A DNA stretch of 64,000 nt from a virus. Below the pieces are notes generated by a model that worked only from the letters and a program-made list of their open reading frames with translations, was not told the origin of the DNA and did not search any database. Each line of letters begins with the position of its first letter. The first letter of the stretch is position 1. The position numbers were made by a program, and so were the translations under genes. Of this stretch, positions 11,946 to 16,357 are shown piece after piece. The stretch spans positions 2,543 to 66,542 of the IMG/VR virus record IMGVR_UViG_3300036799_000108. The stretch is one strand, 5' to 3'.

Positions 11946-12445
11946 TTCACCAGTTGCAGCACGCGTTTCACGCCATTCGGCAGCGGATTGACGATGTCGA
12001 GTTGCCCCGGCGAGAGATAGGCGGCGCGAGGTCTCGCCTGATCATCGCGCCGCTCGCTGAACGGGCTGTGCATGTTGGCGACGATCTCCTGCACGCAGGC
12101 ACGGACATGCGCGATCTCTTCCTCGGACGGCGGCACGCGCGGTTCGAGCGGCGGCGCCTCCCTAGGCTTCTCCAGCAACGGCGGCAGTGGGCGATGCTCG
12201 CGCCACCAGTCGGACAGCCACGCCGCGAGTTCGCCGTAGGTCGGGAAGCCTTTCACCGCCTTGGCGGCGACGTGCTCCAGGCTGGCGGTCGTGAAGGCGC
12301 CATCGGGGAAGCGATCGAACAGCAGCGGCACGTAGGCCGCGAGCTTCATCTCGGCTTCCTGGCGCGAGATGCTAACCGCTGACAGCACGCCGAGGGATTG
12401 GCACCACTGTCGCACCACCGGGATGTGTGTCTTTTGGTTCGGCAT
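11942..12445 (-). CDS. Putative replisome partner / helicase-loader-like protein
   Basis: Directly follows the YdaU initiator; KGFPTYGEL motif; function inferred from synteny. Confidence 0.5.
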   Translation of the reverse strand: MPNQKTHIPVVRQWCQSLGVLSAVSISRQEAEMKLAAYVPLLFDRFPDGAFTTASLEHVAAKAVKGFPTYGELAAWLSDWWREHRPLPPLLEKPREAPPLEPRVPPSEEEIAHVRACVQEIVANMHSPFSERRDDQARPRAAYLSPGQLDIVNPLPNGVKRVLQLVK

Positions 12446-13013
12446 CGATCGTCTCCTGCAGGTCGGCGAAAGTGCTACCGACGAACCCGTTCCGAGGTTC
12501 CTTCACCCTTCCACCATCATAACGAGCCGCCCGCGTTTCCCCCCGATCGGGGGGAATTAAAGGGGGGGCTTTCTGTGTTCTTGGTTGTGGATCTGGAGTC
12601 GCGCGCACGCGGCCGTGATCGCGCGAGTCATCGCTATTTTCTGGATGGCATATGCCATCTTCTCCGTTGGCATGTGCCATTTTCCATCGGCGGCTAGCGC
12701 CTTGTTTTCCAGCAGCTTGCTTGACTTCGCTCACATTCCTGGCGCGCTCCCGTTCAGTGTCGATCCTCCGATGCACCCAGCATCCGTCCTGGCAACTGAA
12801 AAGCGCCATCGCGGGAGCCGCTTGGCGACGCCATTGCGGCACGCTGATCTTGGCGATCCTGGCCAGCGCTGCCTCGTCGGTCGGCAGCTCGCCGCGCTTG
12901 AAGTAATGCATGATCAGCAAGAGGTAGATGCCGTGCTGAAACGTGGTCAGATGCATCGTGTCGGCGAGGTAATCGCCCACGTTGAATCGCATCCAATGGT
13001 CGGTCGAGGCCAT
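12372..13013 (-). CDS. YdaU/DUF1376 family replication initiator
   Basis: WMRFNVGDYLADTMHLTTFQHGIYLLLIMHYF..GELP.DE..LARIA; ATG at 13013. Confidence 0.9.
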   Translation of the reverse strand: MASTDHWMRFNVGDYLADTMHLTTFQHGIYLLLIMHYFKRGELPTDEAALARIAKISVPQWRRQAAPAMALFSCQDGCWVHRRIDTERERARNVSEVKQAAGKQGASRRWKMAHANGEDGICHPENSDDSRDHGRVRATPDPQPRTQKAPPLIPPDRGETRAARYDGGRVKEPRNGFVGSTFADLQETIDAEPKDTHPGGATVVPIPRRAVSG

Positions 13014-13014
13014 C

Positions 13015-13239
13015 TCAGAGCAGACCAAGCACACGGTAATGACGCTCAACCTTGGCCAGCGACATGCCGAACATTTTTGCGACCTCCTCTGGGCTCGGCA
13101 GCAGCCCGGTCGCGGCTAGCTGGCGATCGGCAAATGCCTTGATGCTGGCGGTGCGCGGCGTAGCGTCTGGATGATCACCGCGGTAGCGCTGATAGAGCGC
13201 GGTCTTCTGCCCGCCGCCATGTCGGTATGCGTGGGCCAT
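13015..13239 (-). CDS. Small HTH-like hypothetical protein
   Basis: PSPEEVAKMFGMSLAKVERHYRVL. Confidence 0.6.
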   Translation of the reverse strand: MAHAYRHGGGQKTALYQRYRGDHPDATPRTASIKAFADRQLAATGLLPSPEEVAKMFGMSLAKVERHYRVLGLL

Positions 13240-13274
13240 CACGGCCAGAACTCATCGGGGTGCGGCCAGCCAGA

Positions 13275-13317
13275 AGGGCAGGAGCTAGCCCGGCGAACCG
13301 GACTAGCCCCCTGCCCT
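13275..13317 (-). terminator. Long hairpin with UUCG loop directly after the 26-aa ORF
   Basis: About 19-bp stem; the two imperfect pairs are G-U only in minus-strand RNA. Confidence 0.65.
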
Positions 13318-13396
13318 ACCGCCGACGTATGCTGATCTTGACCTTCACGGCCACGACCACCACTATCCACGGCAGGAACTTGCGATGTTCTAGCAT
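13316..13396 (-). CDS. 26-aa cationic hydrophobic peptide MLEHRKFLPWIVVVVAVKVKISIRRR, putative type I toxin
   Basis: Translated by hand; RBS GAGGGAG 6 nt upstream; flanked by hairpins. Confidence 0.6.
   Translation of the reverse strand: MLEHRKFLPWIVVVVAVKVKISIRRR
13338..13366 (+). promoter_or_regulatory. Sigma70-like antisense promoter inside the peptide ORF
   Basis: TTGACC(13338-43)-N17-CACTAT(13361-66). Confidence 0.5.
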
Positions 13397-13450
13397 CACA
13401 TGCTCCCTCTGAACGCCCGTCAGGCCCATCCTGGCGGGCGTTGCCGTTTT
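13373..13450 (+). ncRNA. Predicted ~75-80 nt antisense RNA covering the peptide start codon and RBS
   Basis: Promoter above; ends in a 13-bp hairpin (13412-13442; G-U pair only in + RNA) followed by GCCGTTTT. Confidence 0.45.
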
Positions 13451-13477
13451 GAGGCCGACGAGGTGCGCGACGCAAGG

Positions 13478-13759
13478 TCATGCTGCCTGCTCCGGTAGCT
13501 CGAGCGGACAATCAACCGTCCGGTAGGTGACGCCAGTCGAGCGCACGCGAATGATGTAGTGGCCGCGCCTGTGACCGACATCGATCATTCCCTGCTTCGC
13601 GAGCCATGCGATCGAATGCGAGAGCCGGTATGGATCGATCGTTTCGGACAGCATCACGCTGATCTCGTGAAGAGGTGGCAGCTCCTCGTCCTTGCGCACG
13701 ACCAGCCACTCGTAGAACAGCATTGCAGCGCGGTGGGTCCATGAGCGGGAAGAGGTCAT
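13478..13759 (-). CDS. Winged-helix-like hypothetical protein
   Basis: LPPLHEISVML...SHSIAWLAKQGMIDV; ATGA overlaps. Confidence 0.6.
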   Translation of the reverse strand: MTSSRSWTHRAAMLFYEWLVVRKDEELPPLHEISVMLSETIDPYRLSHSIAWLAKQGMIDVGHRRGHYIIRVRSTGVTYRTVDCPLELPEQAA

Positions 13760-14019
13760 GATACTCGGTCCGGAGATGCTGAGACGATTTGGTCCCACCG
13801 TCTGTCGTAGAGATGCATGCCCCAGACACTTCGATCGTCGCAAAGCGCAAACAACCGCACCCCGCCATCATTGGCGCAGGCGGAGATCTGAACGATCTGC
13901 ACTCCTGATGGCGGACCAACGGGCAACGAAGGGCGTAGCTGGGGTGTGCCGTCCGAGATGCTCAAGCCACTTCTTAGAGCCTTGGCAGCGCGCGTGGTCC
14001 ATGAGCGGGCGGAGGTCAT
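13756..14019 (-). CDS. Hypothetical protein
   Basis: LFALCDDRSVW; coupled at both ends. Confidence 0.55.
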   Translation of the reverse strand: MTSARSWTTRAAKALRSGLSISDGTPQLRPSLPVGPPSGVQIVQISACANDGGVRLFALCDDRSVWGMHLYDRRWDQIVSASPDRVS

Positions 14020-14642
14020 TGGGTAACCTCGCTGAGAAAGGTCGAGCGATCATTTGGCGATGCGCGCTTCCAGGCGCGACGGAGCACGGTAAGCTGGGAA
14101 GTCTCCGTGATGATGCCGGCAGCGAGCGCAGCGGCACGGGCTGATCGGAACTCACCAGCGGCGAGGCGTTTGGCGAACTCCGGAGCGTCACGCTTGAGGC
14201 GGCCGATCAGATAGGCGGAACCACGGCCGATAAAACCAGTAGTGTTACTATCGGTTTTATGTCCACGCCCTGGGCCTGCATGAATCGCCGGTCCTGCGGC
14301 GGGCACCGCGTCGACCACGTCCCGCAGGAGCTTGCGATCGTCCTCCTCGACCATGATCGCGCGTACAACCTCGACACGCATCCCGAGACCGAACGGCTCC
14401 GGGTATTGGACGAAGTCCTCCCAGGTCGAGAATGTCGATCCATCACGATCGGTCAGTTTGGTGAAGTGCTGATCCTTCGCGAACGAGAGCAACCGATACT
14501 TGAGGCTGGACACCGCGCTCTGTGATTGGCGCTTCAGTTCTCGGATCCGTTCTAGGGCGGCCTTGCACCACGCGGCCGATCCGGAGGGCGCGTTCGGATC
14601 GCCGACGTCGAATAGCTGCGAAGTTCGCGTGATCGCGTTCAT
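14016..14642 (-). CDS. Conserved phage hypothetical protein
   Basis: C-terminal GSAYLIGRLKRD.PE.A.RLAAGEFRSARAAALAAGI motif; ATGA-coupled to the helicase. Confidence 0.7.
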   Translation of the reverse strand: MNAITRTSQLFDVGDPNAPSGSAAWCKAALERIRELKRQSQSAVSSLKYRLLSFAKDQHFTKLTDRDGSTFSTWEDFVQYPEPFGLGMRVEVVRAIMVEEDDRKLLRDVVDAVPAAGPAIHAGPGRGHKTDSNTTGFIGRGSAYLIGRLKRDAPEFAKRLAAGEFRSARAAALAAGIITETSQLTVLRRAWKRASPNDRSTFLSEVTQ

Positions 14643-16357
14643 AACGGATACCAGCGCGGCAGATCGACATACCAAAGCTGGCGCAGCTCGTTCTCCGTCA
14701 TGACTTCGCGGTTCTTGCCGCAACGGCGGATTATCTCGCTGTTGATGGCATGCGCGCGTTCGCCGGCCTGCTCGCCCTCGCGCTCAGCGACGGCGTGCAC
14801 ATGGGCATCACACCATTTCTTCAATTGGTCGGTCCGCTGTGTCGGCGTCAGTGGTGACGCGGCGTCGCCATCGTCATCATCTTCATCCTCACGGCCAGTC
14901 GCTTCCAGCACGTCATCGATGAACCGCTTGAGCGCCAGTGGTGACGCCGACACGCCGTTACGCTCCGCCGCCGCACAAATGTCCCGGTATTCCTTGTCGC
15001 TGGTCGCAAACCCGGTTTCGAACTCGCTGGCGCGAATTGCACCGATCGAGCCGTTCATAGGCACGATGCCACCCGATCGGTCACCGCCGTTGCCGCCGCC
15101 CGTCGCGCTGCGCTCACGCATGAACGGCTGTTGCTGCGCACGGATTGTGGTGATGATCGAGTTCATAAGCGGATCATCAGGGCACCAGATATGCGCGGCC
15201 TGCGTTGACCATGCCCCCGCTTTGTCATCGAATCGCGTAGCCCGTGCGAGGGCTTGGTAAATCCAAGGCATCGACCGGATATGCGTGAGCAACGCAACGT
15301 GAGTGATTGAGGGGCAATCCATCCCCTCATAGGCCATCGCCACCGTGACCAGTGCATCGAGGTGCGGTCGTTCATTGCCCTTTAGTCGCTCGATATTCCG
15401 CAGAGCGTCGGCGGTGTCATCACTGGTGGCGATGCCGCAATGCGGAAGGCCGAGGCGTTGGATATGCTTTTGAAACCGCTGTGCCAGCTTCTTCCGTGGA
15501 GCGATGCAGAGGAATTTAGCGTGTGGATGCCTCTGTCTATACGAATTGAAGTGAGCGACCGCCTCGCTCAATAGCTCAAGCGCGTATGTTTCCTGTAGCA
15601 CTGTGAAGATTGCCGACCGCGCGTCGTCATCATCCGCTGCACTAATCCTGTCGACAAGTCGTTCGTTGTTGCCGTTGTCGCGCCACTGTGCGCTGCCATC
15701 GACATGATGGAACACAAGCGGGATGATCGCTTCCTCGTTCAAGGCATTGCGCCAGTCATAGCGGAATACCTGTTGCGCGGCGGTGTTTTCTAGGTTCGCC
15801 TGTGACTTGCCATGCGCGAGTGGGCCATAATCGAGGAACGCAACCTGCTGCTCATCGTGCCGCTGGAACGTTCCCGACGCCAGCAAGGTGACCGGAGCCA
15901 GTTTGACCAGTTCTGCAAGTTTCCGGTGACGGGTGGAACCATCAACAATGTGATGCCCCTCATCGATGATCAGGCCGGTCCGCTTCCGGCGGAAATAGTC
16001 AATATGCAGATCGATGCGGTCATCTGCCGCGTCGAAGGTCGTGGCATACCCAAACGTGCCACCGTCAGCATTCAGAGGATTGCCTGGCGCGGCCTTAATT
16101 TCAAGCTGGTGACCGATCAGATGACGCAGCCAGGGCGCGACGAACACATGCTCGGCCTGTGAGCACAGTGCGACGCGAGGGCAGAGCCACACCAGGCCAT
16201 CGATGATGCCGCGTGTATGCAGCCGGTGCGCCATGATGGGTCCAAGGCTAGACTTCCCTCCGCCTGGGCAAACGTCGCCGAGTAGCAACCGAATGTCAGT
16301 GCCGCATTCCTGTGCACGCACGAATTGATCGAACTCATACTGAAACCGCCGGAACAT
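14639..16357 (-). CDS. SF2 DEAD/DEAH-box (ResIII-like) helicase
   Basis: PGGGKS (Walker A), IIDEGHH (II), SGT (III), MAYEGMDCP (V), QALARATR (VI). Confidence 0.92.
   Translation of the reverse strand: MFRRFQYEFDQFVRAQECGTDIRLLLGDVCPGGGKSSLGPIMAHRLHTRGIIDGLVWLCPRVALCSQAEHVFVAPWLRHLIGHQLEIKAAPGNPLNADGGTFGYATTFDAADDRIDLHIDYFRRKRTGLIIDEGHHIVDGSTRHRKLAELVKLAPVTLLASGTFQRHDEQQVAFLDYGPLAHGKSQANLENTAAQQVFRYDWRNALNEEAIIPLVFHHVDGSAQWRDNGNNERLVDRISAADDDDARSAIFTVLQETYALELLSEAVAHFNSYRQRHPHAKFLCIAPRKKLAQRFQKHIQRLGLPHCGIATSDDTADALRNIERLKGNERPHLDALVTVAMAYEGMDCPSITHVALLTHIRSMPWIYQALARATRFDDKAGAWSTQAAHIWCPDDPLMNSIITTIRAQQQPFMRERSATGGGNGGDRSGGIVPMNGSIGAIRASEFETGFATSDKEYRDICAAAERNGVSASPLALKRFIDDVLEATGREDEDDDDGDAASPLTPTQRTDQLKKWCDAHVHAVAEREGEQAGERAHAINSEIIRRCGKNREVMTENELRQLWYVDLPRWYPL

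Follow-up and report, generated by a model that had tools for sequence, protein, structure and literature searches.

A Mobile Small-Peptide Cassette with Type I Toxin–Antitoxin-Like Anatomy in a Soil Phage and Its Relatives

In this study, we analyzed a window of 64,000 nucleotides of the viral contig IMGVR_UViG_3300036799_000108 and found in its replication operon a cassette of about 200 bp (13275-13452), which is built around a minus-strand gene for a peptide of 26 amino acids (aa). We put the probability that this cassette works like a type I toxin–antitoxin (TA) module at about one half, and it is then likely a new family in a known class. Relatives were found via a neighbouring protein, degenerate DNA patterns and peptide alignments, and these gave 14 distinct intact loci, a 5'-deleted copy (L004) and a duplicate (L011); L numbers denote loci, and W is the copy in the window. 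The whole arrangement was kept in the 14 loci, and therefore it is not a chance pattern. The comparison indicates that the 26-aa open reading frame (ORF) is a real, conserved gene under selection, and that a small antisense RNA probably overlaps its start site. From this anatomy we infer the antisense transcription, the toxicity or membrane action of the peptide and a role in maintenance, exclusion or host takeover. The more detailed proposal of an unrecognised type I TA family of alphaproteobacterial phages, with the antitoxin promoter lying in the toxin codons and an overlapping frame (frame X) that links toxin translation to that of the operon in a secondarily mok-like way, is offered as a possible and tentative one.

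The conserved peptide gene

The peptide gene (26 codons plus TAG; 13316..13396, read on the minus strand from the ATG at 13396 to 13316) lies inside frame X, which encodes 80 aa. Its Shine–Dalgarno (SD) sequence GAGGGAG (13409-13403) stands 6 nt before the ATG, and both the ORF and the SD were present as the original prediction had quoted them. In the window peptide, a basic N-terminus is followed by the hydrophobic core LPWIVVVV, a stretch in which V and K alternate, and a tail of RRR. The family pattern consists of a basic N-terminus (often HRK), an invariant L-P-W-I-V-V, a variable stretch in which hydrophobic residues alternate with polar or basic ones, an invariant (V/I)-K and a basic end. 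The small ORFs of type I systems have fewer than 60 aa and are usually hydrophobic, and the products of this family, with 24-28 aa, the hydrophobic core LPWIVV and a basic tail, were found to be of this kind.

The constraint on the gene is visible at several levels. A GGAG-type SD was found about 4-8 nt before the ATG in 14/14 intact loci, all length changes were whole codons, and the stop codon fell inside a downstream hairpin, H1, in every one of the 14 loci (TAG in 13, TAA in one). GC by codon position in the 26-aa ORF was 0.59/0.31/0.77, which is coding-like. When codons 6-21 of ten lineages were compared, the variable columns by codon position numbered 8/3/11, position 2 being the most conserved, and the ratio of nonsynonymous to synonymous polymorphism (pN/pS) was 0.52. 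The Arg-tail codons showed synonymous differences between loci, and positions 15 and 17 of the peptide were always V, L or I, encoded by 4 to 6 different codons. If the region were a non-coding structured RNA or DNA element, the 26-aa ORF would be incidental to it. The region is indeed densely structured, but the ORF body has no conserved structure, and the retention of SD, ATG and stop in 14/14 loci, the whole-codon indels, the conservation of position 2 and the keeping of hydrophobic positions via different codons all speak against an incidental ORF. Together with the related notion that frame X is the real protein gene, which is taken up below, we regard this explanation as extremely improbable.

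Some further features of the coding region were observed. The Ile11 codon is ATA (window 13364-13366) in 9/11 lineages, and ATA makes up 9% of the Ile codons of the phage; neither the -10 consensus nor any conserved RNA pair accounts for this preference. Rare A-ending codons were also seen at Ile23/Leu23 and Leu2. The only entry found in a public protein collection was a 37-aa call for the same contig (13429-13316) that starts at the ATG at 13429. We rejected this ATG as the peptide start, as it lies inside an upstream hairpin, H2, has no SD and is not conserved in the relatives; the conserved start is 13396.

The peptide had no usable match in Pfam, PHROG, NCBIfam or PADLOC and no neighbour in the ESM Atlas, and the matches to PspG (E = 0.033) and P22_AR_N (E = 0.081) were rejected as noise. 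A search of Rfam with both strands of 12000-15000 gave a sole match at E <= 1, a chance microRNA far below its gathering score. The original prediction had spoken of a peptide family that it did not recognise, and these results agree with it. Our literature search found no paper on the peptide motif, and in the literature searched there was no report of a type I TA system from Alphaproteobacteria or their phages.

Conserved hairpins and the predicted antisense RNA

Of the three hairpins in the cassette, H3 (13374..13407, minus strand) was missed in the original prediction. It is a hairpin in the sense mRNA over the SD and the start, and the covariation data make it the best-supported regulatory element, one that would sequester the SD and the AUG region. 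In its outer helix, the SD core (13407-13403) pairs with codons 7-8 (13378-13374); in its inner helix, 13399-13394, which are the last bases of the untranslated region (UTR) and the AUG, pair with codons 4-5 (13387-13382). In the 25-aa variants, the inner helix uses codons 3-4 and the AUG lies in the loop. As controls for H1 and H3, the pairing partners were slid along the sequence and the covariation was compared with that of 500 shuffles. H3 has 11 pairs, 4 of them compensatory, with 90.9% of the alignment cells paired vs 37-50% when slid, and its covariation of 0.364 (0.193 shuffled) was reached by 0/500 shuffles. G.U cells numbered 16 on the sense strand vs 7 on the antisense strand. Changes in codon 3, 4 or 5 were matched by changes in the UTR in several loci (for example L018, L007 and L025, each vs L005), and L040 retained the anti-SD though the amino acids differ. 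An mRNA fold that sequesters the SD, as is found in type I systems, was therefore found here in H3.

Behind the peptide gene, the original prediction had described a UUCG hairpin of about 19 bp whose wobble pairs suit the mRNA strand, and this hairpin was present as H1 (13275..13317, minus strand; 19 pairs, one bulge, UUCG loop), beginning inside the TAG stop. Its energy is -36.8 kcal/mol on the minus strand vs -30.7 on the plus strand, with z = -5.1. In the family alignment, H1 has 14 pairs, 4 of them compensatory; 96.8% of cells were paired vs 44-68% when slid, and the covariation was 0.297 vs 0.156 shuffled (0/500 reached it). The 19 G.U cells on the sense strand vs 3 on the antisense strand agree with this polarity. 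These data indicate that H1 is a 3' structure of the sense RNA.

Two other pairings were tried and rejected. A hairpin across the ORF body showed no covariation and reached -3.4 kcal/mol, and no conserved structure was found in this part; a 5'-3' pairing of the pyrimidine-rich tail after H1 with the SD appeared in single folds and was inconsistent across loci. An extra small G+C-rich hairpin was observed between H2 and the SD in the divergent loci L015 (~870-905) and L040 (~655-690).

A predicted promoter lies inside the ORF on the opposite strand (13338..13366, plus strand), where the original prediction had placed it. It consists of a -35 TTGACC (13338-13343) on the V19-K20 codons, a 17-nt spacer and a -10 CACTAT (13361-13366). 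This promoter, taken together with H2 and its tail, predicts a cis-antisense RNA of ~78 nt (13373..13450, plus strand), which would cover codons 1-8, the AUG, the SD and H2. The motif was the top sigma-70-like site on either strand in 13/13 loci scanned, at the same place in each, and took the forms TTGAC[CGT] or TTGATC, a 17-nt spacer and [CTG]AC[TG]AT; it was also seen in L040. No part of the gene varies more than the spacer (codons 14-18), in contrast to the fixed hexamers; none of the peptide indels falls within the 29 nt of the promoter, and the third base of codon 19 is always C. K20 is never R, whereas position 18 swaps K and R freely. As the antitoxin promoter would be written in the toxin's own codons, peptide and promoter would constrain each other.

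The cassette could also be a small-peptide moron without any antisense RNA, in which the peptide serves the phage as an accessory factor, for instance by acting on the membrane in host takeover or exclusion. We consider this rather unlikely, though it is the main rival of the type I TA-like reading. The promoter would then be located just upstream of H2, H2 would be a protective 5' stem-loop, H3 would limit translation and H1 would stabilise the 3' end, while the internal TTGAC...CACTAT would be only a by-product of the V-K and I-V codons. The top ranking of the antisense site in every locus scanned and the absence of R at position 20 argue against this explanation, and so does the polarity of H2.

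H2 (13412..13442, plus strand) has 13 pairs including one G.U, which is a C.A mismatch on the minus strand. It is the predicted stem of the antisense terminator; in the peptide mRNA, which is read from the minus strand, it is part of the 5' leader. It is directly followed by a T-rich tail, GCCGTTTTGA (13443..13452, plus strand), of which 13443-13450 reads GCCGTTTT. The original prediction of a 13-bp hairpin with a tail and with wobble only in the plus strand was thus borne out. H2 was present in 14/14 loci with differing stem sequences, and when the sequences were trimmed to the stems and analyzed with RNAalifold, 6/10 consensus pairs showed compensatory changes. G.U cells numbered 16 on the antisense strand vs 3 on the sense strand (10 vs 3 without the outermost pair), and in L035 the hairpin has four G.U pairs and forms on the antisense strand only. 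A tail near GTT[TG]CC[GA]T[TA]T[TC]T follows H2 on the antisense strand in 14/14 loci; on the sense side only the purine-rich SD follows, with no T-rich tail. In most loci H2 thus forms better on the antisense strand, which stands against the moron explanation. Peptide, promoter motif and the covarying hairpins H1 and H2 were all conserved at the homologous loci.

The sequence on the other side of H2 is where the moron explanation finds its support. Sense -10 candidates end 5-8 nt before H2 in L013, L018 and L003, and the candidate promoters read TTGGCG-17-CAGAAT in L013 and TTGTTT-18-GAAAAT in L018. An extended -10-like TGcTAGATA was found in the tail-fibre loci L005, L007, L014 and L025. In the standalone loci, a sense promoter must sit just 5' of H2, since the gene before the cassette is divergent or no ORF on the same strand extends to it. 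However, the operon-embedded loci W, L010, L012 and L035 have no usable sense -10, yet they keep H2 and the A/T run, and therefore a terminator role is favoured. An own sense promoter is thus plausible in some loci only, and the A/T-rich element may serve as a sense -10, as the tail of an antisense terminator or in both ways.

A second motif of this kind was seen in L018 (~890-935), ~60 nt downstream of H1, where GTGCTAGAAAC...GAAC precedes a hairpin of 8 perfect base pairs. The arrangement is similar to the leader of the tail-fibre-type loci (GTGCTAGATATGGAAAC plus H2) and could represent either a promoter module with an extended -10 or a scar of recombination. Its position before another gene is in line with the moron explanation. 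In the window, the string TGCTAGA recurs at 13397-13388 and supplies the start codon and the loop of H3.

Several observations weigh against the type I TA-like reading. The antisense -10 matches the consensus at only 3/6 positions, the window motif has a position weight matrix score of 10.0, just below the shuffled 95th percentile of 10.6, and generic scans of the window called neither the antisense promoter nor a terminator; the promoter was missed because of its weak -10, and H2 because its T run is short and interrupted. The hexamers coincide with the invariant codons I11-V12 (-10) and (V/I)19-K20 (-35), so their conservation is inseparable from the constraint on the peptide; the conserved hexamers are consistent with a promoter and do not prove one. 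A wobble pair of H2 favours the sense strand in L009 and L025. A sense -10 is another possible reading of the A-rich motif 5' of H2, and H2 would then be a 5' stem-loop of the mRNA; the second motif and hairpin of L018 have no peptide gene behind them. H1 has no U tract, and the SD of the next gene comes right after H1 in the tail-fibre loci L005 and L025; thus H1 is a stabiliser or a weak terminator and not a strong stop. For a membrane helix, the uninterrupted hydrophobic run of the peptide is short, at only 9-11 residues. No homology was found to known type I toxin or antitoxin RNA families (Hok/Sok, Ldr/Rdl, Ibs/Sib, TisB/IstR, ShoB/OhsC, Fst, AapA/IsoA and others), and the cassette was single-copy in both genomes searched. 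The window was matched in soil DNA metagenomes only. A small leaf-litter metatranscriptome contained a 215-nt contig of an L007-like copy, which extends from inside H2 through the ORF to ~80 nt downstream of H1. As this contig tells nothing about strand or transcript ends and may stem from carried-over DNA, it gives a weak hint at sense transcription and at read-through past H1.

Genetic contexts, mobility and frame X

The cassette occupies at least five unrelated gene contexts, in soil phages and in two bacterial chromosomes. W, L003, L010 and L012 are located in a replication module between a gene with a winged helix-turn-helix-like part (the wHTH gene) and a 74-aa HTH-like gene, and L018 and L035 are upstream of a 155-168-aa gene and an AAA_25 primase-helicase. 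L004, L005, L007, L014 and L025 directly follow a tail-fibre gene, and the L005 copy precedes an Asp/Asn-hydroxylase-like gene. L009 was found on a 693-kb contig of an alphaproteobacterial metagenome-assembled genome between crcB and rfbB, L013 on a chromosomal contig between a divergent glutathione S-transferase gene and a convergent glutamate synthase gene, and L015 and L040 on two further contigs. In a related phage, L047 (IMGVR_UViG_3300048909_000132), the corresponding junction at 1818-1823 is empty: the wHTH stop overlaps the DUF1376 start, and neither the cassette nor the 74-aa gene is present. The varied contexts and the empty junction indicate a self-moving insertion, and we conclude from this comparison that the cassette is an autonomous, horizontally mobile unit.

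This autonomy and mobility suit a selfish toxin–antitoxin-like module. An autonomous insert between conserved phage genes that is absent from relatives is also what defines a moron, and both the empty L047 junction and the at least five contexts were found to be of this form; the position next to tail-fibre genes is a classical moron site. In L049 (IMGVR_UViG_3300045120_000303, 1800-1856), a different, nearly all-hydrophobic 18-aa ORF (MKVWIVI...) was observed at the wHTH/DUF1376 junction, with ATGA coupling at its start, TGATG coupling at its end and no flanking hairpins. As this ORF is merely coupled, tiny hydrophobic peptides do occur at this junction without an antisense apparatus, which agrees with the moron explanation, and the junction seems to be a hotspot for such genes.

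The 5'-deleted copy L004 (2216-2442, minus strand) is identical to the L005 type except for a 39-nt deletion, through which H2 has lost its 3' arm and the gene its SD and its first two codons, the start among them. It is probably an inactivated copy. A lesion of this kind would be expected if the gene were harmful, and it can be taken as an indirect hint only.

The cassette is rare: searches of cultured phages and plasmids with tblastn and blastn gave no match, and ~185,000 species genomes gave one, G001. This was also the only real match among 401 alphaproteobacterial genomes, in which a pattern match in G383 was due to chance. We also considered an integron gene cassette and rejected it, since the flanks at H1 and H2 do not fit the attC core sites RYYYAAC...GTTRRRY (judged by eye) and the copies are single, without arrays.

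The range of contexts also bears on the idea that the ORF is a leader peptide, whose translation as far as the base of H1 would govern read-through into, or translation of, the replication genes behind it (the 74-aa HTH-like gene and the DUF1376 gene). Such an attenuator would fit the stop codon within the H1 stem, the rare Arg/Ile codons that cluster at the 3' end of the ORF and the position of the unit directly upstream of the initiator genes in the window. However, the downstream genes elsewhere are unrelated (Asp/Asn hydroxylase-like, a 155-aa gene with the AAA_25 primase-helicase, rfbB), L013 has nothing downstream on its strand and its next gene is convergent, the upstream gene is divergent in L015 and L013, and H1 has no U tract. 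We therefore find an attenuator very improbable. The original prediction had listed attenuation of the downstream initiator gene among the possible functions; because the cassette adjoins divergent, convergent and tail-fibre genes elsewhere, and also stands in chromosomes, this cannot be its general function.

Frame X (13481->13239, minus strand) starts with an ATGA overlap with the upstream stop and ends with a TGATG overlap with the downstream start. The original prediction had described it as an 80-aa ORF coupled to both neighbours, which is correct for the window, and as a mok-like part of the unit, which did not hold for the family. Its GC by codon position (0.73/0.68/0.51) is not coding-like, and a pN/pS of 2.1 shows that the protein it would encode is not conserved. 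A stop codon interrupts the frame in L015, and in the tail-fibre and chromosomal loci checked the frame has no coupling to its neighbours. These points oppose a real protein gene in frame X, for which one could cite that the frame is open and coupled at both ends (ATGA/TGATG) in W, L012 and, despite an extra 108 nt, L010, and that in L003 a 34-nt deletion joins it in frame to the upstream gene. Frame X is always open and coupled in the replication-module loci. Direct coupling is the ancestral state, since the L047 site is empty, and for this reason, together with the open frame in the replication modules, X is read as a bridging ORF. The pattern across loci indicates that X is a context-specific bridging ORF and not a conserved protein. 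We infer that ribosomes translating X are led over the insertion to the 74-aa gene, whose own SD is weak or absent; these ribosomes would also melt H3, which would be a local and secondary mok-like effect. All readings other than the type I TA-like one and the moron, taken together, appear quite improbable.

The source is a viral contig in IMG/VR of 69.6 kb with 62% G+C, which is 93% complete, and the window is most of it. The local genes are all on the minus strand in the order SF2 helicase, 235-aa gene, wHTH gene, gap, 74-aa gene and DUF1376 gene, and the 236-nt gap between the wHTH and 74-aa HTH-like genes houses the cassette. The wHTH gene (13759->13478, 93 aa from the ATG at 13759; the longest ORF, of 121 aa, starts at 13843) was so named because its C-terminal half resembles a winged-helix DNA-binding domain, as judged by eye alone. 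It had no Pfam family match, and its sole PHROG match was phrog_436, which is weak (E 0.02) and of no known function. Homologues were found in L003, L010, L012, L047 and L049. The 74-aa HTH-like gene (13239->13015) has a weak or absent SD and is followed by the DUF1376 primosomal gene (13049-12372). In L010 (3158-4003), the homologue of the 74-aa gene continues in one frame into the DUF1376 gene, owing to either a frameshift or an assembly error, and the DUF1376 gene of L047 seems by eye to bear an extra C-terminal HNH-like part.

Proposed mechanism and relation to known systems

In the type I TA-like reading, the sense mRNA, which may be operon-borne or self-promoted, would be translationally closed by H3 by default and would carry H1 as a stable 3' hairpin starting in the stop codon. 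The internal promoter would drive a constitutive ~78-nt cis-antisense RNA ending at H2 and the T-rich tail. H3 may open spontaneously or through ribosomes passing in frame X; once it is open, the antisense RNA would pair with the SD, the AUG and codons 1-8, to which it would have full complementarity, and block initiation. The complementary H3 loops may help this pairing, and the duplex would probably be cleaved. If the antisense RNA were lost or outpaced, the basic-hydrophobic peptide would be made and the cell would be harmed, probably at the membrane. In this phage, the out-of-frame X would move ribosomes from the upstream gene over the cassette and transiently melt H3.

Type I systems are known in which the antisense RNA reaches over the first part of the ORF and hairpins hide the SD (PMC8594479, PMC5416894, PMC6733600). 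The proposed layout of the cassette matches these; it is closest to AapA/IsoA and SymE/SymR, and not to hok/sok. AapA/IsoA type I systems are reported in Helicobacter and Campylobacter, and AapA1 has 30 aa (PMC5416894, PMC6733600). The cassette shares with them a toxin-sized peptide, a predicted cis-antisense RNA over the start of translation and the beginning of the ORF, hairpins that sequester the SD, one of them inside the ORF, and the possibility of loop-loop pairing between complementary hairpins on both RNAs, the antisense RNA being a predicted one here. On the other hand, it has no sequence or Rfam similarity to AapA/IsoA, and the 5'-3' long-distance interaction and 3' processing are not evidenced for it. 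Its hosts are soil alphaproteobacteria and their phages, it measures ~200 bp, and it can sit inside operons.

In SymE/SymR of E. coli, the antisense promoter lies inside the toxin coding region near its 5' end, and an RNA of ~75-80 nt covers the SD and the start. The predicted promoter in the ORF and the short antisense RNA over SD and start are similar in the cassette. SymE is a 113-aa soluble protein of the AbrB fold under SOS control, whereas the cassette encodes a hydrophobic-basic peptide of 26 aa, for which no relation to SymE was detectable.

As for hok/sok, prophage homologues such as hokW-sokW exist (PMC8621323), and the pairing site of Sok is the mok start, ahead of the hok ORF (PMC8594479). 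Like hok/sok/mok, the cassette combines a small hydrophobic peptide and a structured mRNA on a mobile element, and in the window the translation of an overlapping frame would open the toxin start site, as with mok. Unlike hok/sok, it gave no match to the Hok/Gef family or to Sok RNA, and its predicted antisense RNA overlaps the ORF. Frame X also differs from mok in that it occurs in the replication-module loci only (W, L012, L010 and L003) and is not a feature of the family.

The peptide is very short, like Ibs and other short type I toxins (18-30 aa), and a predicted antisense RNA overlaps it within the mRNA as in Ibs/Sib. The Ibs peptides are uniformly hydrophobic, and Ibs/Sib loci are often repeated. 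In the cassette peptide, by contrast, the hydrophobic core is short and is followed by alternating V and K and by a strongly basic tail, and the cassette was single-copy in two genomes searched. Sib covers the whole ibs ORF (PMC8594479). Type I TA loci borne by prophages have been reported in C. difficile phiCD630 and B. subtilis SPbeta (PMC7699646, PMC5848175). Like phage morons and these prophage loci, the cassette is a small autonomous insert that is present or absent among relatives and often stands by tail-fibre genes; unlike them, it also interrupts a translationally coupled operon, which keeps a bridging frame open.

The reported range of type I TA systems is narrow (Proteobacteria, Firmicutes, Tenericutes), and this was blamed on the bias of homology-based searches (PMC12390103, PMC8594479). 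The known type I systems derive from few model lineages. If the type I TA-like reading is true, a new family would have been recognised by its anatomy and not by homology. The cassette would then be a very compact and portable regulator that combines a hairpin locking the SD with an overlapping antisense RNA, and a clear case of a promoter and a peptide sharing nucleotides. Set side by side, the empty site and the bridging ORF show how an insertion between translationally coupled genes can be tolerated in a phage operon.

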